Below the pieces are notes generated by a model. That model was not told the origin of the DNA. It saw only the letters and a program-made list of their open reading frames with translations, and made no database searches. From Heterodontus francisci (taxonomy: Eukaryota), in contig NC_090379.1 of NCBI RefSeq assembly GCF_036365525.1, forward strand, positions 61,315,202 through 61,379,201: 64,000 bases of DNA, written 5' to 3'. How positions within the stretch are numbered: the first letter of the stretch is position 1; the number at the start of each line of letters is the position of its first letter. This document shows, one piece after another, positions 12,280-58,030 of the stretch. The translations under genes were made by a program, and so were the position numbers.

Positions 12280-15200
12280 TTTTTTTTTAGAACAAACAAT
12301 GAAAGATGCATTAGTTTTGTTCTGAAAAATTATTTGGGTCAAAAGACTGATATGAGAGTAGGAGAACAATTGTGAAACTGCAACAACAAAATTAATTGGG
12401 ATCCATGCCTGAATAGAAAGGGATAATGAAGAGTCAAAGATAAGAATGCTGAACTGGGAAAAGGCAAAGTTCAGTGCAATAAGAAGAAATTTGATCAAAA
12501 TTTAACTTTCATAGCTTCTTCTTCTCACCTGTGCTGTTCCTCTTTACTGAGGTTAAAAAAAAGGTTGACAAACAAAACAACCAATCAGCAATGGGAAATC
12601 TTCAAATATGAGATGGATAGAGTGAAAAATAATTGTACCTCCTTTTTGCCTTTTGCAATACATCAAAAAATTGAGTTCTGTGAGTAAATAGAGAGGCTAA
12701 ATTCAAACAACAAAGGGAGATACATAATAACATTAGGACTAACAGGACTAAAGAAAATCATGAGGAATATAGTGTACTGGGAAGTGAAAAGCGAGATTTG
12801 AATGCTTAAAAGGGAATATAAAAAAAGGCTGGCAGATAATAAAAAAGGAAATAGTAAGGACTTCTAAAAGTATATTAATAGCGAAAGAATGGCTAAAGTG
12901 AGTCTATTTGCTCAGGGATTAAGGAGAATGTGGATGATGAAGGCATGATGTAGATATTTAATAGAATTTATACAAAATTTTCATTTATGATAGTGGGAGT
13001 GAAAATATTGATGTACTGGAGGAAAATATGGAATAATTGTTGATGATAACTGGGAAAAAAAGGAATTGCTTCATTGGCTATAAAGTGTTTTGGGACATTT
13101 TGAGACTGTGAAAGGAGCTATATAAATGTAAGTTGTTTTTTTATTAGTTTGGAAGTGATGTAGCTTAGAAGTGTGTTGGGTTGACTTTTGTTCTGGCTAT
13201 ATACTGTTATTCCAAGTTGTGTCACTATCATTTCAACTAATTAATTCATATCCTGGGTATCTATTAATTTGTCTTACTATGAGGGATTGGTATGAAATGC
13301 TGATCCTTTTTAAATAACGTTTTTATTTAAGAATAAGAAAATAAATGCAATTCAAATCACAAGAAATCATGGAACATATGTGACTGCTGATGTAGGATAA
13401 CCACTGAATCTATAAAAACACATACGTCAGAGTCAGAGGAACAGATTATTCAGAAGTGAATACAGGGAGGCAGTGTTTCTGTATTAAATATTTTGGTACA
13501 GGAAGCCAAGGTCAGTCAAGGAGGTTGAGAAACATAGTGGACAAGTGGACAGGATATGATACGTACGTGAGAGTTTTGGACAAGTTGGAGTTTCTGGAGA
13601 ACAGAGAATGGAAGGCTAGCAAAGGTTCAGTTGGATTAGAGTAAGGAGGTGATGAGCATTTTAGTAAATAAAAGTAAAATACTGCTGATGCTGGAAATGC
13701 AATAAAAAAAGCCAACATGTCCAGCCATGGACCTTTGCGGACCTTTGGCTGTCACAGAGTGCAGCTTGGGCACAGAATGTGAAGCTGGGAGTTTGGTGAG
13801 TGAGGGGGTTCGGTAAAGAGGGAAAGGAGGTGCACCTTCTACCTTTATCAGTCTCTAGTAGTTGGTGAGTTTTCTTCCTTTGTCTCCAAGCCAGGAGAGT
13901 GCAACTTAACTTGTAAGCCGATTGGTCAGTAAGTAACCACTGTAAGGGACTGTATGTAAATAACTGCATAATAGAAAAACGTAAAAGTTTTAAATAATCC
14001 CTAACTACCTACAGGAGAACAGGAGATGGAGCTGATTGGTCCACTTTTTCTAAATCACTTCTCAGCTTAGTAAAATTGGCCTTGCCCCAATTGAGAACTC
14101 TAACGCCTGTTCTGTCTGTCCTTTTCCATAATTATGTTAAAACTAATTGAATTATGATCGCTACCACGAAAATGCTCTCCCACTGCCACTCCTTCCTCTT
14201 GTCCAGTTTCATTATCTCAAACTAAATACAGAACCGCGCCCTCTCTTGTTGAACTTGCTACATACTGGCCAAAAAGGTTCTCCTGAATGTGCCGTAAGAA
14301 TTCTGTTCCCTCCATTCCTTTCACACTAAAACTATTCCAGTTAATACTGGGGTAGTTAAAATCCCCTACTATTACTACCTTATTGTTTTTGCACTTCTCA
14401 GATTTGCCTACATATTTGCTCTTCTATCTCCCTCTGATTGTTTGGGGGTCTATAGTACACACCCAGCAGTGTGACTGCCCCTTTTTGTTCCTATGCTCCA
14501 TCCGTATGGCCTTAATTGATGATCCTTCTGACATATCATCCCTCTTCACAGCTGCAATTGTATCTCTAACCAAATTTGCCACCTAACCTCCCTTTTTATC
14601 GCCCTTTCTATCTCATCTGAAAACCCTGTAACCAGGAATGTTGAGCTGCCATTCCTGATCCTCTTGAAGGTAAATCAGTGTCAGAACGGTGGGAGGCATT
14701 CAATGGGGAGATTCAAGGGGTTCAGAGTAAACATATTGCCACAAAGAAAAAGAGTGGAATGACCAAATATAGTGGATGTCAAGGAGCTTACAGGGTAAGA
14801 TAAGGAGAAAATGAAAACATTATGTCAGACCAAGAACTCAATACTACAGAAAGCCGAGAGGTGGTTAAGAAGGCATTTCCTTTATTAGCTGAGGCATAGA
14901 ATATAAGAGTAGGGAGGTTATGCTGGAACTGTATAAAACATTAGTTCGGCCACAACTTGAATACTATATGCAGTTCTGGTTACCTCATTGCAGAAAGGAT
15001 GTAATTGCACTAGAGAGGGTACAAATGAGATTTAGGAGGATGTTGCCAGGACTGGATAATTTAAGCTATGAGGAAAGATTGGTTAGGCTGGGGTTGTTCT
15101 CCTTAGAACAGTGGAGGCTGAGGGGAGATTTGATTGAAATGTACAAAATTGTGAGGGGCCTGGATAGAGTGGATGTGAAGGGCTTAGTTACCTTAGCAGG

Positions 15201-15505
15201 GAGGTCAATGACTAGGGGGCATGGATTTAAAGTAGCAGGACTAGAGGGGAAATGAGGAAAAGTTTTTCACCCAGAGGGTGGTTGGGGTCTAGAACTCACT
15301 GCCTGAAAGGGCGAAAGAGGTAGAAACCCTCAACTCATTTAAAAGATGCCTGGATGTGCACCTGAATGCTGTAACCTGCAGGGCTACGGACCAAATGCTG
15401 GAAAGTAAGATTAGGCTAGGTGGCTCTCTTTTTTTTGGCCAGCGCAGACATGATGGGCCAAGTGGTCTCTTTCTGTGCCGTAAACTTTCTATGATTCTAT
15501 GATCA
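12280..15505. mobile_element. Cluster of decayed CR1 LINE fragments (+ 12280-13020, - 14040-14670, + 14670-15505)
   Basis: CR1 ORF2 C-terminus LYKTLVRPQLEY...LERVQ...RLRGDLIE at 14920-15255; decayed APE pieces elsewhere. Confidence 0.7.
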
Positions 15506-17341: not shown

Positions 17342-20300
17342 TTAGGAGTATTGACAGGCGGAGAGATCTGGACGTACAGGTCCACAGGTCACTGAAAGTG
17401 GCAATGCAGGTGGATAAAGTAGTCAAGAAGGCATACGGCATGCTTGCCTTCATCGGTCAGGGCACAGAGTATAAAAATTGGCAAGTCATGCTGCAGATGT
17501 ACAGAACTTTAGTTAGGCCACACTGAGAATATTGCGTGCAATTCTGGTCGCCACACTACCAGAAGGATGTGGAGGCTTTGGAGAGGGTACAGAAGAGGTT
17601 TACCAGGATGTTTCCTGGTCTGGAGGGCATTAGCTATGAGGAGAGGTTGGATAAACTGGAATTGTTTTCACTGGAACGACGGAGGTGGAGGGGCGACATG
17701 ATAGAGGTTTACAAAGTTATGAGTGGCATGGACAGAGTGGATAGTCAGAAGCCTTTTCCCAGGGTGGAAGAGTCAGTTACTAGGGGACATAGGTTTAAGG
17801 TGTGAGGGGGAAAGTTTAGAGGGGATGTGCGAGGCAAATTCTTTACACAGAGGGTGGTGAGTGCCTGGAACTTGCTGCCGGGGGAGGTGGTGGAAGCAGG
17901 TACGATAGCGAGGCATCTTGACAAATACATGAATAGGATGGGAATAGAGGGATACGGTCCCTGGAAGTTTTTAAAAACTTCCATTCATGCGATGTCGGCA
18001 ACGCTGGCCAGGCCAGCATTTATTGCCCATCCCTAATTGCCCTTGAGAAGGTGGTGGTGAGCTGCCTTCTTGAACCGCTCTAGTCCATTTGGGGTAGGTA
18101 TACCCACAGTGCTGTTAGGAAGGGAGTTCCAGGATTTTGACCCAGCGACAGTGAAGGAACGGTGATATAGTTCCAAGTCAGGATGGTGTATGACTTGGAG
18201 GGGAACTTGCAGGTGGTGGTGTTCCCATGTATTTGCTGCCCTTGTCCTTCTAGTTAGTAGAGGTCGCGGGTTTGGAAGGTGCTGTCTAAGGAGCCTTGGT
18301 GCATTGCTGCAGTGCATCTTGTAGATGGTACACACTGCTGCCACTGTGTGTCGGTGGTGGAGGGAGTGAATGTTTGTAGATGGGGTGCCAATCAAGCGGG
18401 CTGCTTTGTCCTGGTTGGTGTCGAGCTTCTTGAGTGTTGGAGCTGCACCCATCCAGGCAAGTGGAGAGTATTCCATCACACTCCTGACTTGTGCCTTGTA
18501 GATGGTGGACAGGCTTTGGGGAGTCAGGAGGGGAGTTACTCGCTGCAGGATTCCTAGCCTCTGACCTGCTCTTGTAGCCATAGTATTTATATGGCTACTC
18601 CAGTTCAGTTTCTGGTCAATGGTAACCCCTAGGATGTTGATAGTGGAGGATTCAGCGATGGTAATGCTGTTGAATGTCAAGGGGAGATGGTTAGATTCTC
18701 TCTTGTTGGAGATGTTCATTGCCTGGCACTTGTGTGTCGCGAATGTTACTTGCCACTTCTAAGCCCAAGCCTGGATATTGTCTACGTCTTGCTGCATTTC
18801 TACATGGACTGCTTCAGCATCTGAGGAGTCACGAATGGTGCTGAACATTGTGCAATCATCAGCGAACATCCCCCCCTTCTGACCTTATGATTGAAGGAAG
18901 GTCATTGAGGAAGCAGCTGAAGATGGTCGGGCCTAGGACACTACCCTGAGGAACTCCTGCAGTGATGTCCTGGAGCTCAGATGATTGACCTCCAACAACC
19001 ACAACCATCTTCCTTTGCGCTAGGTATGACTCCAGCCAGCGGAGGGTTTTCTCCCTGATTCCCATTGACCTCAGTTTTGCTAGGGCTTCTTGATGCCATA
19101 CTCCGTCAAATGCTGCCTTGATGTCAAGGGCAGTCACTCTCACCTCACCTCTTCAGTTCAGTCCTTTTGTTCATGTTTGAACCAAGGCTGTAATGAGGTC
19201 AGGAGCTGAGTGGCCCTGGCAGAACCCAAACTGAGCGTCACTGAGTAGGTTATTGCTAAGCAAGGGCTGCTTGATGGCACTGTTGATGACACCTTCCATC
19301 ACTTTACTGATGATTGAGAGTAGGCTGATGGGGCGGTAATTGGCCGGGTTGGATTTGTCCTGCTTTTTGTGTACAGGACGTACCTGGGCAATTTTCCACA
19401 TTGCAGGGTAGATGCCAGTGTTGTAGCTGTACTGGAACAGGTTGGCTAGGGGCGCGGCAAGTTCTGGAGCACAGGTCTTCAGTACATTGCCGGAATATTG
19501 TCGGGGCCCATAGCTTTTGCAGTGTCCAGTGCCTTCAGTCATTTCTTGATATCACGCAGAGTGAATCGAATTGGCTGAAGTCTGGCATCTGTGATGCTGG
19601 GGACTTCAGGAGGAGGCTGAGATGGATCATCAACTCGGCACTTCCGGCTGAAGATTGTTTGATTTGATTTTTGATTTATGATTTAGAGATTGTTGCAAAT
19701 GCTTCAGCGTTATCTTTCGCACTGATGTGCTGGGCTCCCCCATCATTGAGGATGGGGATATTTGTGGAGCCACCTCCTCCAGTTAGTTGTTTAATTGTCC
19801 ACCACCATTCACGGCTGGATGTGGCAGGACTGCAGCGCTTGGATCTGATCCGTTGGTTATGGGATCGCTTAGCTCCATCTATCGCATGCTGCTTGCGCAG
19901 TTTGGCACGCAGATAGTCCTGTGTTGTAGCTTCACCAGGTTGACACCTCATTTTGAGGTATGCCTGGTGCTGCTCCTGGCTTGCCCTCCTGCAATCTTCA
20001 TTGAACCAGGGTTGGTCTCCTGGTTTGATGGTAATGGTAGAGTGGGGGATATGCCGGGCCATGAGGTTACAGATTGTGGTTGAGTACAATTCTGCTGCTG
20101 CTGCTGATGGCCCACAGCGCCTCATGGATGCCCAGTTTTGCATTGCTAGATCTGTTCGAAATCTATCCCATTTAGCACGGTGATAGTGCCACACAACACG
20201 ATGGACGGTATCCTCAATGTGAAGGCGGGACTTGGTCTCCACAAGGACTGTCCAGTGGTCACTCCTACCAATACAGTCATGGACAGAAGCATCTACAGCA

Positions 20301-20845
20301 GGCAGATTGGTGAGGACGAGGTCAAGTATGTTTTTCACTCGTGTTGGTTCCCCCACCACCTGCCGCAGACCCAGTCTAGCAGCTATGTCCTTTAGGACTC
20401 GGCCAGCTCGGTCAGTAGTGGTGCTACCGAGCCACTCTCGGTGATGGACATTGAAGTCCCCCACCTAGAGTACATTTTGTGCCCTTGCCACCCTCAGTGC
20501 TTCTTCCAAGTGCTGTTCAACATGGTGGAGTACTGAGTCATCAGCTGAGGGAGGGCGGTAGGTGGTAATCAGTAGGAGGTTACCTTGCCCATGTTTGACC
20601 TGATGCCATGAGACTTCATGGGGTCCGGAGTCGATGTTCAGGACTCCCAGGGCAACTCCCTCCCTACTGTATACCACTGTGCCACCACCTCTGCTGGGTC
20701 AGTCCTGCCAGTGGGACAGGACATACCCAGGGATAGTGATTACAGTGTCTGGGACATTGTCTGCAGAATGTTTTAGTTTAGACAGGCATCAAGATTGGCG
20801 CAGGCTTGGAGGGCTGAATGGCCTGTTCCTGTGCTGTACTGTTCT
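17342..20845 (+). mobile_element. 5'-truncated CR1 LINE split by a nested LINE (17342-17966 and 20762-20845)
   Basis: Collinear with 53790-54450 and resumes exactly at ggaag|tgcaga; candidate TSD TTGACCC at 17335-17341 and 20846-20852. Confidence 0.85.
17967..20761 (-). mobile_element. CR1/L2-group LINE (APE-RT), nearly complete, frameshifted
   Basis: Minus ORFs give YRPP, GDFN, LDL, SDH (APE), then NYRPISLLS, FGF, DIKAAFD, GVPQGSVLGP, FADD (RT); 3' end aagggcaattagggatgggcaataaatgctggcc. Confidence 0.9.
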
Positions 20846-22889
20846 TTGACCCATGCACTGCTCTCCATCAACTGTTTAGCTCTTGCCCATTTCTGCACCA
20901 CAGTTTGGCTGTAACCACATAGCCTTGAACTTGATGAGTGTCTTTCTCAGTATCTGTGACCTCTGATCAGTTGGCCCAATGTTTAGGACTTTCACTCTGC
21001 GTTTACGTCACTTGATGTATTGTGAAATTTATTACAGTGAGTAGTAGGTAATGGCAGAATGCCATTGAAGAAATAAATCTCAGCTGTTTTGATTTCACAT
21101 GACTGAATAAAAAGGTGCAAGCAGGTACTGTGCAACAAAATTACTTCTGAATTGTGGAAGATCCACATGCAGCAGTGTGTTCCCTTCACTATTCTGTATT
21201 ATTGCAGTCAAACGACTGACCGAAGCAACCTATTGGGATTCTAGCATTTGGCAGCCAACTTTCAAGGCGATATATATGCATAGTAACTTTTGTTAGGACA
21301 TGGCAATCCTTACTTTTTTTATATCAAATATCATACCGACCAAGTATGTAACACAACTTGTATCTATTTCATGATTGATTTTGATTTAGGTACTTCACTT
21401 GCCTTATCACTGCACTACTAGTCTGTAACTATTCTGTAACCAGTCAGTGGCAGTTGAGCAGGGTTAACAGCTGGGAAGATAGTTTATAAACTACATTCCT
21501 GCTACCAAGGGACAACTCCACACATACATGCTTTCACACCTTCAGAATGTGATGACTTGTCAATACATTTTCAGTGTTTGAGCGCTGGTGAGTCTCCACA
21601 CTCTCAAAGTGTCAACAACTTTGCAGACGGTCCAATGTATCCTTGAATGCCCAACTTCACCCCACACCGGGATGAACCTCATGTTGCATCAAGTCCTAGT
21701 AGTGTGGTGAAGCAAAAATTCCCTTTTTAAAAATGTTGAAAATGAAACCATTCCACCATTGATAAAGTGCAGCATCTGTGTTTATCTTCCTCAATTTGTT
21801 CAGAAAATTTGTACATATCTAAAATATTTATAGTGGACACTTCCTATAAAATGTCACGTAATTGCTATCGCACTTTAGCTGTCATACTTTACCACATCCT
21901 CTGAAACATAAGCAAATCTACGAGAGGTACGCTAGTGTGTGTATATGTTTCAAATTGCAAGTAAAAATATTGCTTAGTCCAAGTGGCAGTAACAAGGTTT
22001 GCATGCTTTATGTAATGTAGATGACATGAATTACATGACATGAATTTTAGTTTTATTTGTTTCTTTTGGTTTACTGGGAAAATCTTATTTTCTGAATGTG
22101 ATTGTTTTTAATCTGATATTCCAGCTGGCAGTGCTGGTCTGGACTCAATTAAACTATCTGTAGTTGATTAAGGCAACCATGTTAGTCGTACCCAGCTGAC
22201 TCCAGTACCTGATTGAAAGACATGTACTTGTGTGCTGAAGAGAACTGCTGAACACAATGCAGTGCCCATATGGAATGCCCAGCAGCTGGTTTTGAAATTG
22301 AGAATGGAAATGCTTTCTCCCCCTATGCAGTCAACCAGTAACACAACTCGATGTCCAACAAAATGCCAACCTTCTGGCTGAGTGAGGTCATGCTGTGATA
22401 AGTGTTTAATTAGGGTTTCCCTGAAGATCTGCCCCAAATTCTTTGGCTCCGCTCCTGGCTAATGCTAATGAGCAATTCTGGAATGGGTAATCTAGTCTTA
22501 AATGTATATCTTGAGTTACATAGAAACATAGAAAATAGGAGCAGGAGTTGGCCATTCGGCCCTGCTCCGCCATTCAAAAAAGATAATGGCTGATCGTCTA
22601 ATTCAGTACCCTGTGCCCGCTTTCTCCCCCTATCCCTTGATCCCTTTGGCATTAAGAAATATATTTATCTCCTTCTTGAATATATTTAATGACTTGGAGT
22701 TCAGAATAATTGCAGCCAATCTGTTTTGCACTTGAAAGACAACTTATAGAGTGGGAGGAAAAGGTAGTGGGAGTCATGTCTTCAACTACCCTTTAGTTTC
22801 TCTGCTTATCAACATTTGAGTTTCTGTATAAATTAAGTCCATTGCAAACATAAAACTAATCTGAGGCTTGATGGTAAATACAGCAATTA

Positions 22890-31840: not shown

Positions 31841-32555
31841 GATTTGGGTGTTCAGGTCCACTGTTCCCTGAAGGTGGCAACGCAGGTAAATAGAGTGGTC
31901 AAGAAGGCATACGGCATGCTTTCCTTCATCGGACGGGGCATTGAGTACAAGAGTTGGCAGGTCATGTTACAGTTGTATAGGACTTTGGTTCGGCCACATT
32001 TGGAATACTGCGTACAGTTCTGGTCGCCACATTATCAAAAGGATGTGGATGCTTTGGAGAGGGTGCAGAGGAGGTTCACCAGGATGTTGCCTGGTATGGA
32101 GGGCGCTAGCTATGAAGAGAGGTTGAGTAGATTAGGATTATTTTCATTAGAAAGACGGAGGTTGAGGGGGGACCTGATTGAGGTGTACAAAATCATGAGA
32201 GGTATAGACAGGGTGGACAGCAAGAGGCTTTTTCCCAGAGTGGGGGTTTCAATTACGAGAGGACACGAGTTCAAAGTGAAAGGGGAAATGTTTAGGGGGG
32301 ATATGCGTGGAAAGTTCTTTACGCAGAGGGTGGTGGGCACCTGGAACGCGTTGCCAGCGGAGGTGGTAGACGCGGGCACGATGGAGTCTTTTAAGATGTA
32401 TCTAGACAGATACATGAATGGGCAGGAAGAAAAGAGATACAGAACCTTAGAAAATAGGCGACATGTGTAGAGAGAGGATCTGGATCGGCGCAGGCTTGGA
32501 GGGCCGAAGGGCCTGTTCCTGTGCTGTAATTATCTTTGTTCTTTCTTTGTTCTTT
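31841..32555 (+). mobile_element. Young 5'-truncated CR1 nested in CR1
   Basis: Uninterrupted ORF2 C-terminus (DLGVQVH...TRGH...FFTQRVV) and (TTCTTTG)n tail; gta repeated at both junctions. Confidence 0.88.
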
Positions 32556-32839
32556 GTAATGTTTTGACATGGATAGATAATTGGCTAGCGAACAGGAAAC
32601 AGAGTAGGCCTAAATGGGTCATTTTCTGGTTGACAAGATGAAACGAGTGGTGTGCCACAGGGATCTGTGCTGGGGCCTCAACTTTTTACAATTTATATAA
32701 ATGACTTAGATGAAGGGACCGAAGGTATGGTTGCTAAATTTTCTCTTGACACAAAGATAGGTAGGAAAGTAACTTGTGAAGAGGACATAAGGGTGCTACA
32801 AAGGGATATAGATAGGTTAAGTGAGTGGGCAAAGACCTG

Positions 32840-34532: not shown

Positions 34533-35569
34533 AGATAATTGGCTAGCGAACAGGAAACAGAGTAGGCCTAAATGGGTCATTTTCTGGTTGACAAGATGAA
34601 ACGAGTGGTGTGCCACAGGGATCTGTGCTGGGGCCTCAACTTTTTACAATTTATATAAATGACTTAGATGAAGGGACCGAAGGTATGGTTGCTAAATTTT
34701 TTCTTGACACAAAGATAGGTAGGAAAGTAACTTGTGAAGAGGACATAAGGGTGCTACAAAGGGATATAGATAGGTTAAGTGAGTGGGCAAAGACCTGGCA
34801 AACCGAGTATAATGTGGGAAAGTACGAAATTGTCCACTTTGACAGGAAGAATAAAAAAGAAGCATATTATCTAAATGGTGAGAGATTGCAGAGCTTTGAG
34901 ATGCAGAGGGATCTGGGTGTCCTAGTGCATGAATCACAAAAGGTTAGAATGCAGGTACAGCATGTAATTAGAGCTATTAGAATGTTATTGTTTATCGCGA
35001 GGGAAATTGAATACAAAAGTAGGAAGGTTATGCTTCAGCATTGGTGAGATCACATCTGGAGTACTGTGTACAGTACTAGTTTCCTTATTTAAGGAAGGAT
35101 GTAAATGCGTTGGAGGCAGTACAGAGAAGGTTTACTCGACTAATAGCTGGAATGGGCGGGCTGTCTTACGAGGAAAGGTTGGACAGGCTAGGCTTGGATC
35201 TGCTGGAAGAGTAAGAGGCGACTTGATTGAAACATATAAGATCCTGAGGGGTCTTGAAAGGGTGGATGTGGAAAGGATATTTCCCCTTGTGGGAGAATCT
35301 AGAACTGGGGTCACAAAAATAAAGGGTCGCCAATTTAAAAAGGGTCATAAGTCTTTGGAATTCTCTTCCTCAAAAGGCGGTGGAAGCAAAGCTTTTGAAT
35401 ATTTTTAAGGTAGAGGTAAATAGATTCTTGATAAGAAAGGCGGGGGGGTGAAAGGTTATCGGGGGTAGGTGGAAATGTGGAGTAATCAGTTCAGCCATGA
35501 ACTTACTGAATGGCGGAGCAGGCTCGAGGGGCCGAGTGGCTGACTCCTGCTCCTAATTCGTATGTTCGT

Positions 35570-35960
35570 AATTGAACCTGCCTCCACCACACTCTCAGGC
35601 AGCGCATTCCAGACCTTAAATCACTTGCTGCGTGAAGTTTTTCCCTCATGTCACTTTTGCTTCTCTTACTGAATATTTTAAATCTGTGCCCTCTCGTTCT
35701 CAATCCGTTCACAAGTGGGAACAGTTTCTCTCTATCTACTCTGTCCAGATCACTCAATTTTGAATACCTCTATCAAATCACTTCTCAGCCTTCACTTCTC
35801 CAAGGAAAACAGTCCCAACTTCTCCAATCTATCTTCATAACTGAAGTTCCTCATCCCTGGAACCATTCTCGTGAATCTCTTCTGTACTCCCTCCAATGCC
35901 CTCATGTCTTTCCTTAAGTGCGGCACTCAGAATTGGACGTAATACTCTAGCTGAGGCTGG
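35570..35960 (-). mobile_element. CR1 3' fragment
   Basis: Minus ORF RVDREKLFPLV..RTRGHRFK. Confidence 0.75.
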
Positions 35961-46811: not shown

Positions 46812-49650
46812 TAGAGTCATGGAGTTATACAGTGCAGAAATAGGCCCTTCGGCCCATCATGTCCGTGCTGGCCATCAAGCACCTATCTATTCTAATCCCA
46901 TTTTCCAGCACTTGGCCCGTAGCCTTGTATGCTATGGCGTTTCAAGTGCTCATCTAAATACTACTTAAATGTTGTGAGGTTACCTGCCTCTACCACCCCT
47001 TCAGGCAGTGTGTTCCAGATTCCAACCACCCTCTGGGTGAAAATGCTTCTCAGGATTAAATTCCATCTGCCACTGCTCTGCCCATCTATATCATCCTGTA
47101 ATCTAAGGCTTTCCTCCTCACTATTTACGACCACCAATTTTCGTGTCATCTACGAACTTACTTATACCTCCTATATTCATATTAAAATCATTAATGTACG
47201 CTACAAACAGCAAGGGTCCCAGTACCGATCCCTGTGGTACATACACCACTGGTCACAGGCTTCCAATCGCAAAAACAACCCTCGACCATCACCCTCTGCC
47301 TCCTGCCACTAAGCCAATTTTGGATCCAGTTTGCCAAATTGCCCTGGATCCCATAGGCTCATACCTTCTTAACCAATCTCCCATGCGGGACCTCATCAAA
47401 AGCCTTACTGAAGTCCATGTAGACTACATCAACTGCTTTACCCTCATCTACATACTTAGTCACCTTCTCAAAAAAGTCAAGTCAAATTTGTTAGACACGA
47501 TCTCCCCCTGACAACGCCATGCTGACTATTCCTGCTTAATCCAAGTGGAGGCTAATCCTGTCCCTCAGAATTTTTTCCAATAGTTTCCCTACCACTGATG
47601 TTAGACTCACCGGCCTGTAATTACCTGGTTCATCTCTGCTACCCTTCTTGAATAATGGTGCCACATTCGCTGTCCTCCAGTCCTCAGGCACCTCTCCTGT
47701 GGCCAGAGAGGATTTGAAAATTTGTGTCAGAGCTCCTGCAGTCTCCTCCCTTGCCTCACATAGCAGCCTGGGATACATCTCATCTGGACCTGCGGATTTA
47801 TCCACTTCTTAGCCTGCTAAAACCGCTAATGCCTCTTCCCTTTCAATGCTAATTTGTTCAAGTATATCACAATCCCCTTCCCTGATCTCTACACCTACAT
47901 CGCCCTTCTCTATAGTGAACACAGATGAAAAGTAATCATTCAAAACCTCACCTACGTCCTCCGGCTCCACACACACATTGCTACTTTGGTCCCTAATGGG
48001 CCCTACTCTTTAATAAAAGCAAAATACTGCGGATGCTGGAAATCTGAAATAAAAACAAGAAATGCTGGAAATACTCAGCAGGCCTGGCAGCATCTGTGGA
48101 GAGAGAAGCAGAGTTAACGTTACAGGGCCCTACTCTTTCCCTGGTTATCCTCTTGCCCTTAATATACTTAGATAACGCCTTGGGATTTTCCTTTATCTTG
48201 TCCGCCAGTGTTTTCTCATGCCCCCTCTTCGCTCTCCTAATTACTTTTTTAAGTACCCCCCTACATTTTCTATACTCCTCTAGGGCCTCTGCTGTTTTCA
48301 GCCCTCTGAACCTGCCATAAGCCTCCTTTTTTATTTCCTTATCCAATCCTATATCTCCCTTGATATCCTGGGTTCCCTGGACGTGTTCGTCCTACCCTTC
48401 ATCTTTACGGGTACATGTTGGCTCTGAACTCTCGCTATTTCCTTTTTGAATGACTCCCACTGGTCTGATATGGACATTGCTACAAGTTGCCGCTCCCAGT
48501 CCACTTTGGCCAGATCCTGTTTTGTCATATTGAAATCAGCCTTCCCCCAATTCAGTATCTTTATTTCCGGTCCATCTTTGTCCTTTTCCATAATGACCTT
48601 AAATCTTAGAGTTATGATCACTGTCCCCAAAATGCTCCCCCACTGACACTTCTACCACTTGTGCAGCTTCATTCCCTAAGATTAGGTCCAGTGCCGCCAC
48701 TTTTCTTGTGGGACTTTCTACATGCAGGCTCAAAAAGCATTTTATGCATTTTAAGAATTCCACCCCTTTTAAGCCTTTTGCACCAAGACTATCGCAGTTA
48801 ATATTGAGGAAGTTGAAATCCCCTACAATTATTACCCTATTATTTTTACATCTCTCTGAGATTTGCTTATATATCTGCTCCTCTATCTCTCCCTGACTAT
48901 TTGGAGGCCTGGAGTACGCTCCCAGCAAAGTGATTGCCCCCTTTTTGTTTTTAAGTTCTACTCATATGGCCTCATTTGAGGAACCTTCCAAGATATCATC
49001 CCTCCTTACTGCAGTAATTGACTCCTTGATCAACAGTGCGATGCCACCTTTTTACGCTCCCCCCTGTCACGCCTGAAGATTCTGGAATATTGAGCTGCCA
49101 GTCCTGCCCTTCCCTCAACCATGTCTCTGTGATAGCAATAATATCATATTCCCAACTGTTAATCAATGCCCTCAATTCACCTGCCTTACTTGTAAGACTC
49201 CTTGTGTTAAAATAGATGCAATCCAGTCTTGCATTATTCGCTTGTGCCTTAACAGGTCTATATTTACTCTGCCTTCCAGACTGACTCAGTTTGTCTTCTA
49301 TATTTGGCTGTGCATCACCCCCGACTCTACCTCCATTCAGTATCCCATCCCCCTACCAAATTAGTTTAAACCCCCCCCCCCCGCCAACAGCACTAGCAAA
49401 CCTCCCTGCAAGGATGTTGTTCCGGTTCAGGTGCAACCCGTCCGACTTGTACAGGTCCCACCTTTGCCAGAAACAGAGCCAGTAATCCAGGAAACTAAAG
49501 CCCTCCCTCCTGCACCATCTCTTTAGCCGCGCATTCATCTGCTTTATCCTCTGATTCCTGTACTCACTAGCATGTGGCACTGGGAGTAATCCAGAGATTA
49601 CAACCTTTTGAGGTCCTGCTTTTTATTCTGCTACCTAGCTCCCTAAATTC
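46812..49650 (-). mobile_element. CR1 LINE (ORF1 C-terminus, APE, RT, 3' tail) with internal deletions
   Basis: Minus ORFs give DGLHLN (esterase), GDFN, SDHN, NYRPVSLTS and FTQRVV. Confidence 0.88.
48012..48124 (-). mobile_element. 113-bp Penelope-derived insertion with 14-bp TSD
   Basis: GGGCCCTACTCTTT at 47998-48011 and 48125-48138 flanks the pLTR-like repeat. Confidence 0.85.
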
Positions 49651-50535: not shown

Positions 50536-53500
50536 TAAGGATTTAATAAGTATTTATTTATTTTATATTAATTAACTAATTAGTGATAGAAATGTCAGTT
50601 AGAGGGGTGAAGTGCTTCACCTGTGAGATGTGGGAAGTCCGTGACGCTTCCAGCGTTCCGGGCGACTACATCTGCAGGAAGTGTACCCAGTTGCAGCTCC
50701 TCACAGACCGCATGGATCGGTTGGAGCGGCAACTGGATGCACTTAGGAGCATGCAGGTGGCGGAAAGCGTCATAGACAGGAGTTTTAGAGAAGTGGTTAC
50801 ACCCAAAGTGCAGGCAGATAGATGGGTGACCGCTAGCAGGGGCAGGCAGTCAGTGCAGGAATCCCCTGTGTCTATCCCCCTCTCTAACAAGTATACAGTT
50901 TTGGATACTGTTGCGGGGGATGGCCTATCAGGGGAAAACAGCAGCAGCCAGAGCAGTGGCACCACGGTTGGCACTGTTGTTCAGCAGGGAGGGACAAAGC
51001 GCAGAAGAGCACTAGTTGTAGGGGACTCCATAGTCAGGGGCACAGATAGGCGCTTCTGTGGACGTGAGAGAGACTCCAGGAAGGTATGTTGCCTCCCTGG
51101 TGCCAGGGTCAAGGATGTCTCTGAACGGACAGAGGGCATTCTGAAGGGGGAGGGTGAACAGCCAGAGGTTGTGGTACACATCGGTACCAATGACATAGGC
51201 AGGAAGAGTGATGAGGTCCTGCAGGGGGAGTTTAGGGAGTTAGGTAGAAAGTTAAAAAACAGGACCTCGAGGGTTGTAATCTCTGGATTACTCCCTGTGC
51301 CACGTGCCAGTGAGGCTAGAAATAGGAAGATAGTGCAGCTAACACGTGGCTGAGCAGCTGGTGTAGAAGGGAGGGTTTCAGATATCTGGACCATTGGGCT
51401 CTCTTCAGGGACAGATGGGACCTGTACAAGAAGGACGGGTTGCATCTAAACTGGAAGGGCACTAATATCCTGGCTGCAAGGTTTGCTAGGGTCACTCGGG
51501 AGGGTTTAAACTAGTGTGGCAGGGGGGTGGGAACCAGAGCAGTAGGACAGCTAGTGAAGTAAATGAGGAGGACATAGTAAATAAGGCCAGTAGGACTAAG
51601 AGGAAAAGCAGGCAGGGAGATGTTGCTGAGCACAGCGGGACTGGTGGTCTGAAGTGCATTTGTTTCAATGCGAGAAGTATAACGGGTAAGGCAGATGAAC
51701 TTAGAGCTTGGATTAGTACTTGGAAATATGATGTTGTTGCTATTACAGAGACTTGGTTGAGGGAAGGGCAGGATTGGCAGTTAAATGTTCCAGGCTTTAG
51801 AAGCTTCAGGCGGGATAGAGGGGGATGTAAAAGGGGTGGGGGAGTTGCATTACTGGTTAAGGAGAATATCACAGCTGTACTGCGGGAGGACACCTCAGAG
51901 GGGTCATGCAGCGAGGCAGTATGGGTGGAGCTCAGGAATAGGAAAGGTGCAGTCACGATGTTGGGGGTTTACTACAGGCCTTCCAACAGCCAGCGGGAGG
52001 TAGAGGAGCAGATATGTAGACAGATTTTGGAAAGATGTAAAGGTAACAGGGTTGTAGTGGTGGGTGATTTTAACTTCCCCAATATTGACTGGGACTCACT
52101 TAGTGCTAAGGGCTTGGATGGGGCAGAATTTGTGAGGAGCATCCAGGACGGCTTCTTGAAACAGTATGTCGATAGTCCAACTCGGAATGGGGCCATTCTG
52201 GACCTGGTATTGGGGAATGAGCCCGGCCAGGTGGTCGAAGTTTCTGTGGGGGAGCATTTCGGGAACAGTGACCATAATTCCATAAGTTTTAAGGTACTTG
52301 TGGATAAGGATAAGAGTAGTCCTCGGGTGAAGGTGCTAAATTGGGGGAAGGCTAATTATAACAATATTAGGCAGGAACTGAAGAATTTAGATTGGGGGCG
52401 GCTGTTTGAGGGTAAATCAACATCTGACATGTGGAAGTCTTTCAAATGTCAGCTGATTAGAATCCAGGACCAGCATGTTCCTGTGAGGAAGAAAGACAAG
52501 TTTGGCAAGTTTCCGGAAGCTTGGATAACACGGGATATTGTGAGCCTAGTCAAAAAGAAAAAGGAAGCATTTGTAAGGGCTGGAAGGCTAGGAACAGATC
52601 AAGCACTTGAAGAATATAAAGACCGTAGGAAAGAACTTAAGCAAGAAGTTAGGAGGGCTAAAAGGGGTCATGAAAAGTCATTGGCAAACAGGATTAAGGA
52701 AAATCCCAAGGCTTTTTATACATATATAAAGAGCAAGAGGGTAACCAGGGAAAGGGTTGGTCCACTCCAGGACAGAGATGGGAATCTATGCGTGGAGCCA
52801 GAGGAAATGGGTGAGATGCTTAATGCATCAGTATTCACCAAGGAGAAGGACTTGGTGGATGATGAGCCTAGGGAAGGGAGTGCAGATAGTCTCAGTCATC
52901 TCATTATCAAAAAGAAGGGGGTGTTGGGTGTCTTGCAAAGCATTAAGGTAGATAAGTCCTCAGGGCCTGATGGGATCTACCCTAGAATACTGAGGGAGGC
53001 AAGGGAATAAATTGCTGGGGTCTTGACAGAAATCTTTGCATCCTCATTGGCGTCAGGTGAGGTCCCAGAGGCCTGGAGAATAGCCAATGTTGTTCCTTTG
53101 TTTAAGAAGGGTGGTAAGGATAATCCAGGAAATTATAGGCCGGTGAGCCTTACGTCAGTGGTAGGGAAACTATTAGAGAGGATTATTCGGGACAGGATTT
53201 ACTCCCATTTGGAAACAAACGAACTTATTAGAGAGAGACGGCATGGTTTTGTGAAGGGGAGGTCGTGTTTTACTAATTTGATTGAGTATTTTGAGGAAGT
53301 GACGAAGATGATTGATGAGGGAAGGGTGGTGGATGTTGTCTATCTGGACTTTAGTAAAGCCTTTGACAAGGTCCCGCATGGCAGACTGGTGCAAAAGGTG
53401 AAGTCACATGGGATCAGAAGTGAGCTGGCAAGATGAATACAGAACTGGCTCGGTCACAGAAGACAGAGGGTAACAGTGGATGGGTGTTTTTCTGAATGGA

Positions 53501-54472
53501 GGGATGTGACTAGTGGTGTTCCACAGGGATCAGTGCTGGGACCTTTGCTGTTTGTAGTATATATAAATGATTTGGAGGAAAATGTAGCTGGTCTGATTAG
53601 TAAGTTTGCGGACGACACAAAGGTTGGTGGAGTTGCGGATAATGATGAGGATTGTCAGAGGATACAGCAGGATATAGATCGGTTGGAGACTTGGGCGGAG
53701 AAATGGCAGATGGAGTTTAATCCGGACAAATGTGAGGTAATGCATTTTGGAAGGTCTAATGCAGGTGGGAGGTATACAGTAAATGGCAGAACCCTTCGGA
53801 GTATTGACAGGCAGAGAAGGCATTCGGCATGCTTGCCTTCATCGGTCGGGGCATAGAGTATAAAAATTGGCAAGTCATCTTGCAGCTGTACAGAACCTTA
53901 GTTCGGCCACACTTAGAATATTGCGTGCAATTCTGGTCGCCACACTACCAGAAGGACGTGGAGGCTTTGGCGAGGGTACAGAAGAGGTTTACCAGGATGT
54001 TGCCTGGTCTGGAGGGCATTAGCTATGAGGAGAGGTTGGAAAAACTCGGATTGTTTTCATTGGAACGACGGAGGTGGAGGGGCGACATGATAGAGGTTTA
54101 CAAAGTTGAGTGGCATGGACAGAGTGGATAGTCAGAAGCTTTTTCCCAGGGTGGAAGAGTCAGTTACTAGGGGACATAGGTTTAAGGTGCGAGGGGCAAA
54201 GTTTAGAGGGGATGTGCGAGGCAAGTTTTTTTACACAGAGGGTGGTGAGTGCCTGGAACTTGCTGCCAGGGGAGGTGGTGGAAGCAGATACGATAGCGAC
54301 ATTTAAGAGACATCTTGACAAATATATGAATAGGAAGGGAATAGGGGGATATGGGCCCCGGAAGTGCAGAAGGTGTTAGTTTTGGCAGGCATCAAGATCG
54401 GCACAGGCTTGGAGGGCTGAATGGCCTGTTCCTGTGCTGTACTGTTCTTTGTTCTTTGTTTGTTTGTTCTTT
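50536..54472 (+). mobile_element. Near full-length CR1 LINE: ORF1 (Zn finger, coiled coil, SGNH esterase) and ORF2 (APE-RT), recently inactivated
   Basis: ORF1 has CxxC..CxxC, GDSIVRG, HIGTND, DGLHLN and ends TAG 51512-14, with a 1-nt deletion at ~51342. ORF2 has FNARS, ITETW, GDFN, SDHN, PQGSVLGP, FADD, stops at 53008 and 53434, and a ~64-bp deletion at ~53816. (TTCTTTG)n tail. Confidence 0.95.
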
Positions 54473-56574: not shown

Positions 56575-58030
56575 TTTAATCCATTCTCATATTGTGGGCC
56601 TGACATTTATCATAAGCCTTCTTTTTCAGTTTTGTTTGAATCTCTATATCTTTAGTCATCCAGGGAACTCCAGCTTTGAATTCTTTTCCTTTCCTCCTTA
56701 CGGGAATGTGTCTAGTCTGTACCCGAACTTTGAAGGCCCCAAATGCTCATTTATTGTTTAATGTAGCAATATTTGGTTCCAATCCACCTGGGCCAAATCC
56801 TTTTTCAACTCACTGAAATTAGTCCTCCTCTGGTTGCCTATTTTTACATTTGATTGCTCCTTGTCCTTTTTCCACAACTACTCAAAACCTAATACTGTGA
56901 TCACTGTTACCCAAATGCACCCCCACTGAAACATGATCCACTTGCCTCACTTCTTTCCCCAGAACCAAATTCAGAACTGCTTCCTTCTTTGTTGGGCTGC
57001 AAACATACTGATCAAGAAAGTTCTTTTCTACAGATTTCAGGAATTCCTCCTCTTTGCCTTTAACACTGTCATTTCACCAGTCTATGTTAGGATAATTGAA
57101 TTCCTCCTTATCCCTACTCAATAGTTCTCACATTTTTCTGTACTTTGCCTTCAAATTTGCTCATCTACCTCCTCCCCAATATTTGGTGACAAAGAGTATT
57201 CACCCAGCACCATAACCGGTCTGCTATTGTTCCTTAATTCTAACCAAATAGATTCTTTGAGCCTTCAAGTACATCATCCCTTTCCAATACTGACCAATAC
57301 TACCACCCCACTTCCATTTTTTTCATCCCTCTCTTTCCTGAATATTTTGTAACCATGAATATTAAGTTCCCAATCCTCCACTTGTTTGAACCAGGCCCCT
57401 TTGTTGCCGCTATATGATAATCCCATGTGTCAATTTGTGCCTACAACTCGCCAACCTTATTGACCACACTTCCAAATCCATCTTGGCTTACCTCGCATTT
57501 CACCCATCTGATCCGTCCTGTTTCTGTTTTTCTACAGTACTCTTTATTCTAATGCTGTTTGTCCCTCCCAATCCTCTGTGCACCTTGTTTCTCTCTAATA
57601 CTTCAACCTACTGTCCCTTCTCCTGTCAAATTGATTTAAATCCTGCTCCACAGCGCAAGTTAACCTTGCCACAAGGAAATTGGTTCCAGCCCTGTTGAGA
57701 TGCAAATCATCCATCTTGTACACATCCCTCCTGCTCTAGAAGTGGTTTCAATGCCCCAGAAATCTGAAGCCCTCTCTCCTGAACCCATGTGTCAGCCAGA
57801 CATTAACTTGCCTTATTTTACTGTCCCTCTAGTCAATAGCATGTGGCACTCAGAGTAATCTAGAGATTGATGCTTTTTGAGGTCCTGCTCTTTAGCTTCC
57901 CCCCTAGCTCTTGAAACTTTGACTGCACGACAAGTCTTTTCCTTCCTAATTTGTTGCTTCCAGCATGGACCACGATCTCTTGCTGTTCCCTCTTCCCCAT
58001 GCAGAATGTTTTGCACCTGTTCTGTGAAAA
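56575..58030 (-). mobile_element. Old CR1 5' portion (ORF1 esterase plus APE), decayed
   Basis: Minus strand IVVHAGSN..G...FQELG.KLKSRTS matches ORF1 at 51170-51280. Confidence 0.7.

Follow-up and report, generated by a model that had tools for sequence, protein, structure and literature searches.

The slippery heptamer U_UUA_AAC, which directly precedes the ORF1 stop codon in this shark retrotransposon and in its relatives, is with a probability of about three in four a programmed -1 ribosomal frameshift site, from which a minor ORF1-ORF2 fusion would be made. Because the families share the heptamer and the adjoining stop, have ORF2 one base back and possess no start codon in common, the copying enzyme is likely to be produced as a fusion, by -1 slippage. 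An earlier note on this DNA had proposed frameshifting at this junction, a proposal now supported by constraint at synonymous sites, by a linker that is free of stops in the -1 frame and by Leu-Asn-stop ends found across vertebrates, all of which is evidence from sequence.

The retrotransposon and its junction

The element spans about 50590 to 54460 of the window (the whole stretch of 64,000 nucleotides that was analysed), in a host genome of 6.0 Gb, and consists of an ORF1 with an SGNH esterase followed by an ORF2 with an APE endonuclease and a reverse transcriptase. ORF1 (50592..51514, plus strand) encodes an N-terminal Cys-rich finger, a coiled coil and the SGNH/GDSL esterase. It aligns to the ORF1 esterase of PDB entry 4C1B (E 1.8e-37), the ORF1 of an unbroken sister copy matches Lipase_GDSL_2 (E 8.9e-13), and the nearest named homologues are from sharks and rays. 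In ORF2, which is 34% identical to a stork ORF2-like gene model, the endonuclease domain (51649..52275, plus strand) is followed by a reverse transcriptase domain (53011..53853, plus strand) in two pieces parted by a stop, each with an RVT_1 match. Domain searches of the element's ORFs detected no protease domain for processing a fusion. We take the element to be a CR1-type non-LTR retrotransposon, a provisional name given on architecture and on identity to the stork model. The window copy is dead: a one-base change shifts the frame of ORF1 near 51340, and ORF2 is interrupted by stops at 53008 and 53434, with further frameshifts after them.

ORF1 ends GAG GGT TTA AAC TAG (51500-51514), as the earlier note had read it, and the coordinates given there were all correct. 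That note described two overlapping slippery heptamers, and both GGGTTTA (51502..51508) and TTTAAAC (51505..51511, both plus strand) are indeed in ORF1 phase in the window copy, but G_GGU_UUA is present in only 5 of the 8 families described below and was ruled out as a second slip site. U_UUA_AAC, found in all eight, reads Leu-Asn in the ORF1 phase and Phe-Lys-Leu in the -1 frame, and is abutted by the ORF1 stop (51512..51514, plus strand), which is TAG in three families and TAA in five. ORF2 lies in the -1 frame, where it is closed upstream by TAG at 51487..51489 (plus strand) and open from 51490 to 53007 (506 codons). No in-frame ATG occurs in it before 51958, which is codon 149 if numbering starts at the ORF1 stop and codon 157 if it starts at 51490; this ATG falls inside the endonuclease domain, past the FNARS (51664) and ITETW (51742) motifs. 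On these points, as on the presence of a G tract 3' of the junction, the earlier description holds.

The -1 frame stop at 51487-51489 deserves separate mention. A TAG or TAA exactly five codons upstream of the heptamer is modal in 7 of the 8 families, its T being held at a position that is synonymous in ORF1; the stork models lack this stop. Such a stop would restrict entry into ORF2 to the last five codons of ORF1.

TTTAAAC followed by a stop occurs ten times in the window; two of these are CR1 junctions and the other eight were rejected as such. Likewise, the junction 12-mer with at most two mismatches has 10 matches in the window, against 7.9 expected. The motif being common by itself, its evidential weight lies in its position and its conservation. 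The second CR1 junction belongs to an older family, on the minus strand at 49344..49373, and reads as previously noted: TTTAAAC TAA with the G motif, a lengthened upstream G run and a stop five codons into ORF2. In the loci of this kind (L031-L060; window 49370-49385, minus strand) the G run before the heptamer varies in length among copies, often shifting the ORF1 frame. A third, older copy (57631-57858, minus strand) retains an ORF1 end, an endonuclease remnant and a decayed junction (57631..57640) two substitutions away from heptamer plus stop. Further LINE fragments, mostly of the 3' part, lie at 47047-49650 (minus strand), 14893-15303, 17426-17968, 20762-20848, 31902-32714, 34572-34672 and 35717-35957.

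Conservation of the heptamer in the shark genome and beyond

All 30 of the nearest loci in the shark genome, the window copy included, have the heptamer, but as these are 96-100% identical we collected divergent families with protein queries. ORF1 ends were anchored on the esterase motif, using queries without the last 10 residues. This gave 193 distinct anchored ORF1 3' ends, with the stop at the expected place in 158 and TTTAAAC in 146 of those 158. In six of the remaining 12 the G run is changed and an in-frame TAA falls inside TTTAAA, and the other six have a single substitution. Family tests were made on an earlier set of 176 ends, 142 of them clean, from which the eight groups with at least two members were used and three singletons excluded. 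The eight families are 55-83% identical over the final 150 nt of ORF1.

The expectation that the heptamer would be held at synonymous sites was borne out, since Leu is encoded by TTA, Asn by AAC and the preceding base is T in 8 of 8 families. Elsewhere, the last 60 ORF1 codons contain 12 further invariant residues, none of which keeps a single codon (eight families), and the first 36 endonuclease codons contain 10, of which one does (nine groups). Before TTA stands GGT in five families, while the remaining three have GCT, ACT or AGT, encoding G, A, T or S; as this codon is not fixed as GGT, U_UUA_AAC alone is the conserved site, not G_GGU_UUA. In contigs from four public runs, representing four organisms, no alternative letter reaches 2% or more over 51505-51513, whereas variation is seen in the flanks and at the last base of the stop codon; this comparison is biased towards similar sequences and drops rare variants, and the runs are either presumed RNA or of unspecified kind. 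Because the families have a common ancestry, 8/8 does not amount to independent trials. On the DNA comparison, U_UUA_AAC is conserved at synonymous positions beyond what the protein needs.

It seems very improbable that Leu-Asn is instead kept for the function of the ORF1 protein, with its codons maintained by descent and ORF2 made from an internal non-AUG start or from a separate or spliced RNA. The Leu would lie on the last esterase helix, as placed by the 4C1B alignment, and the families are related, both of which agree with such an explanation, but all 12 control residues differ in codon across the same families and, among distant esterase relatives, 55 of 101 representatives end without Leu-Asn. 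As for splicing, no joint was seen across 51455-51560 in the contigs of the four runs, which cannot prove absence, and the six low-depth joints in a wider stretch, from one run, lack GT..AG ends. Polymerase slippage in the T/A or G runs, adding a base and so joining the frames in some RNAs, is hardly credible: the G run upstream of the heptamer does differ in length among copies of one family, but this instability is confined to that family, the conserved runs comprise just 3 T and 3 A, and contigs of the four runs (in which rare variants are dropped) contain no inserted or missing letters in 51455-51560.

Similar ORF1 ends are widespread in vertebrates. Among 177 homologous proteins, 138 have the esterase anchor; 126 end 20-36 residues past it, 114 of these in Leu-Asn, including proteins from named sharks, rays, an eel, a mormyrid, frogs, turtles, lizards and an alligator. 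Directly before Leu-Asn, 2 of 47 clusters have a residue that lacks a U-ending codon (E, Q, K, M or W), compared with 16/47 at the next position upstream and 17/47 at the one before that (Fisher p 4e-4 and 2e-4, respectively). The same residues are also scarce at positions -6 and -7 (4/47 clusters each), so helix packing may account for part of the pattern at -3. Gene models that cross the junction in the -1 frame read FKL there in a ray, a tortoise, three unnamed proteins and 6 of 11 long models, all six of one stork species. FKL in the -1 frame combined with LN-stop in frame 0 leaves U_UUA_AA(C/U) as the only possible sequence, although the two readings were observed in different records, and evidence beyond the shark genome and the contigs is at the protein level. 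We also observed that public gene models (P0344-P0349, P0030, P0144) bridge ORF1 and ORF2 by predicted introns or copy-specific indels, which masks the junction in annotation.

When representatives were taken at 50% identity (150 proteins), 101 ended 22-60 residues past the anchor: 46 in Leu-Asn, 9 in Gly-Asn, 2 in Lys-Asn and 44 otherwise. All nine Gly-Asn ends are Gln-Gly-Asn (P0209, P0212, P0217-P0220, P0224, P0254, P0264), and an internal Lys-Asn follows Ala, Thr, Arg, Ser or Gln in 12 proteins. Judged from the protein ends, Gln-Gly-Asn and Lys-Asn fit the slippery sequences G_GGA_AAC and A_AAA_AAC. Relatives with Lys-Asn near the end include P0223, P0234, P0262, P0266, P0270, P0271, P0276, P0278 and P0284. 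Scans of metagenomes, prokaryote genomes and viruses gave 3, 2, 1, 0 and 1 loci, five of the seven being read, and no usable junction DNA from distant relatives; a divergent fish ORF1 query brought back the same families only. The record P0010, a CR1 ORF1 of shark type with 63% identity, sits on a 4 kb contig attributed to Pseudomonas aeruginosa and is probably host contamination.

Access to ORF2 and the region 3' of the stop

Of the 130 copies whose heptamer is intact, 112 have the endonuclease in the -1 frame, 10 have it in frame 0 and 8 in +1; the last 18 are likely dead ones with indels. The divergent linker between shift site and endonuclease (51515..51648, plus strand) is free of stops in the -1 frame in the window copy, and over the eight families the modal linkers (119-191 nt) contain 0 stops in the -1 frame versus 30 and 46 in the other two.

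According to the earlier note, an in-frame AUG upstream of the endonuclease in the family consensus would speak against frameshifting. This arrangement exists in a minority, as UAAUG, its AUG in frame with ORF2, in one of the eight families and as a later linker AUG in two, while five have no ATG upstream of the endonuclease, neither in the linker nor on the stop. The codon overlapping the ORF1 stop is, family by family, GTT, GTG, AAT, ATG, ATT, GTG, ATT and ATT, that is, ATG in 1/8, a near-cognate codon in 5/8 and neither in 2/8, so no AUG at or next to the stop is shared by all. The family with UAAUG is a young one (loci L064-L093, e.g. L066:2373-2400) that also has the heptamer, and it could use both routes to ORF2.

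These codons bear on termination-coupled reinitiation at the codon overlapping the ORF1 stop (UAAUG, or a near-cognate GUG or AUU), which would yield free ORF2p and make UUUAAAC and the G tract parts of the signal. We consider it unlikely. In its favour are the overlapping ATG in one family, GTG in two and ATT in three, and a UGGGA located 81-99 nt upstream (at -81, -96 or -99) in all eight families; UGGGA is the calicivirus-type reinitiation motif and in the viral cases stands at a fixed upstream place. The open -1 linker is equally compatible with reinitiation, and precedents exist, according to the available portions of PMC3708506 and PMC2881922, in SART1, which uses UAAUG and a downstream structure, and in L1, where ORF2 depends on ORF1 translation. 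However, two of the eight families have GTT or AAT overlapping the stop, and the models from the stork, tortoise and ray have a codon for Asp, Gly or Asn there. The UGGGA stems from Trp-Asp codons at two different places, and 1-45% of 100-nt background windows contain it; only 10 of 47 vertebrate clusters have Trp-Asp/Glu within the last 34 residues. Moreover, an exactly phased X_XXY_YYZ is not predicted by reinitiation, and neither is its apparent replacement by G_GGA_AAC in distant relatives. For these families -1 frameshifting thus stays the preferred reading.

In the folding test suggested by the earlier note, the downstream sequence of none of the eight families scored better than shuffled sequences (z -1.42 to +0.98). 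An alignment of seven downstream sequences gave no consensus base pairs and the junction region had no Rfam match. A hairpin stimulator 5-9 nt downstream was accordingly rejected on folding, which covered nested folds only, in a region with little C or U. For 6 of the 8 families, a two-tier G-quadruplex is predicted downstream.

The most constant feature 3' of the stop is GGGG-NNN-GG (51522..51530, plus strand), a candidate stimulator which starts at the 11th base after the heptamer and is kept in 8/8 families, with two synonymous third positions among its fixed bases; a single copy in the larger set misses one of its Gs. The motif encodes Gly-x-Gly in the -1 frame and may be kept only for that. 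The stork models have FKL-D-S/L-K-G-E-G in matching register, and the tortoise retains the first Gly only. We also looked at a pyrimidine-rich ORF1 patch some 640 nt upstream (window about 50865-50895; L187-L198), which could form about 10 bp with the G motif in six related families and was the best partner of that motif in several of the 11 junctions listed. This patch encodes a Pro/Ser-Leu-x-Asn-Arg/Lys-Tyr/Phe motif. Long-range pairing was set aside as a weak lead, since own-family pairing was no better than cross-family pairing (permutation p 0.32) and synonymous resampling gave p 0.04-0.71.

A proposed retrovirus-like route to ORF2 and its precedents

In the mechanism that we propose, the majority of ribosomes would terminate at UAG or UAA and release an ORF1p ending in Leu-Asn, while a minority would slip from UUA/AAC to UUU/AAA in the -1 frame. 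The slipped ribosomes would read ...EGLN-LVWQGGG across the linker and continue into the endonuclease and reverse transcriptase, and a low rate of fusion would set a ratio like that of Gag to Gag-Pol. More speculatively, the pause could be caused by the G-rich motif 11 nt downstream, through a bound protein or a small G-quadruplex and not through a local hairpin, perhaps assisted by slow termination. The most extended version of this reading, in which CR1 elements of jawed vertebrates would make an esterase-endonuclease-reverse transcriptase fusion at an invariant U_UUA_AAC-stop, stimulated by a protein on the +11 G motif rather than by RNA structure, and in which deeper relatives would have swapped heptamers (G_GGA_AAC, A_AAA_AAC), is possible but doubtful.

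A close viral parallel is the coronavirus IBV, which has the same U_UUA_AAC in the right phase and, as in retroviral gag-pol, places its polymerase gene in the -1 frame after another gene, a structural one in the gag-pol arrangement, as outlined in the available part of PMC5009743. The CR1 junction differs from both in having no detected pseudoknot or hairpin 5-9 nt downstream and no detected protease domain. The same text, as far as available, counts U_UUA_AAC with the heptamers on which mammalian ribosomes shift most readily, also lists G_GGA_AAC, and describes stimulation of frameshifting by G-quadruplexes in synthetic constructs. It further describes how PRRSV nsp1beta and a poly(C)-binding protein act on an unstructured 9-nt CCCANCUCC, 11 nt 3' of the shift site (PMC5009743). 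The likeness to CR1 is one of position only: GGGG-NNN-GG also starts at the 11th nucleotide, but it is G-rich and encodes Gly-x-Gly. A protein switch at this motif would be the mirror image of the poly(C) switch of PRRSV.

Among non-LTR elements, the ORF1p class of zebrafish ZfL2-1 (PDB 4C1B; PMC3905857) shares the SGNH esterase ORF1 and an ORF2 with APE and reverse transcriptase, and has homologues from sharks to birds; the accessible part of that paper does not mention frameshifting. Dictyostelium TRE5-A and TRE3-A need a -1 frameshift for ORF2, according to a figure legend in a review (PMC5911963). They too are APE-type non-LTR elements, but belong to another host kingdom and have no esterase ORF1 described in the portion available; the CR1 junction has an invariant heptamer abutting the stop. 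Elsewhere, the available text of PMC5009743 attributes mammalian LINE ORF2 synthesis to unusual initiation, and L1 and SART1, which are experimentally tested LINEs, are reported in parts of PMC2881922 and PMC3708506 to use coupled reinitiation, ORF2 translation of two-gene LINEs in general being described there as unclear (PMC3708506) or as reinitiation (PMC2881922). In SART1 and L1, as in CR1, ORF2 begins near the ORF1 stop, and one CR1 family has UAAUG; unlike in SART1, UAAUG is missing in 7/8 CR1 families and the invariant feature precedes the stop.

A search of full-text literature found no report of ORF1/ORF2 frameshifting in CR1; most subscription papers and the original 1997 CR1 papers were outside its reach, and an earlier proposal is therefore possible. 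The original descriptions are reportedly those of Haas (1997) and Kajikawa (1997). CR1 is not mentioned in the available frameshifting text of PMC5009743, the accessible parts of PMC5006619, PMC5408684, PMC6609765 and PMC13405545 contain nothing on the CR1 junction, and the junction motif was not found in those supplements of PMC4255032 that were available.

As far as sequence comparison can tell, the junction is real, strongly conserved and of the recoding type, and would bring a known mechanism, -1 frameshifting, to a major LINE clade. In birds, reptiles and sharks, CR1 dominates among LINEs. Its dominance in reptiles is also stated in the part of PMC6609765 available. If our reading is correct, the CR1 lineage uses a retrovirus-like Gag-Pol strategy, ORF2p bears ORF1p at its N-terminus, and consensus annotations which begin ORF2 at an internal Met are wrong; vertebrate genomes would also harbour a natural -1 frameshift signal of great abundance and age, whose stimulator would be unusual. 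If, in addition, slippage were stimulated by a protein, a host factor or the ORF1 protein could switch retrotransposition at the ribosome.
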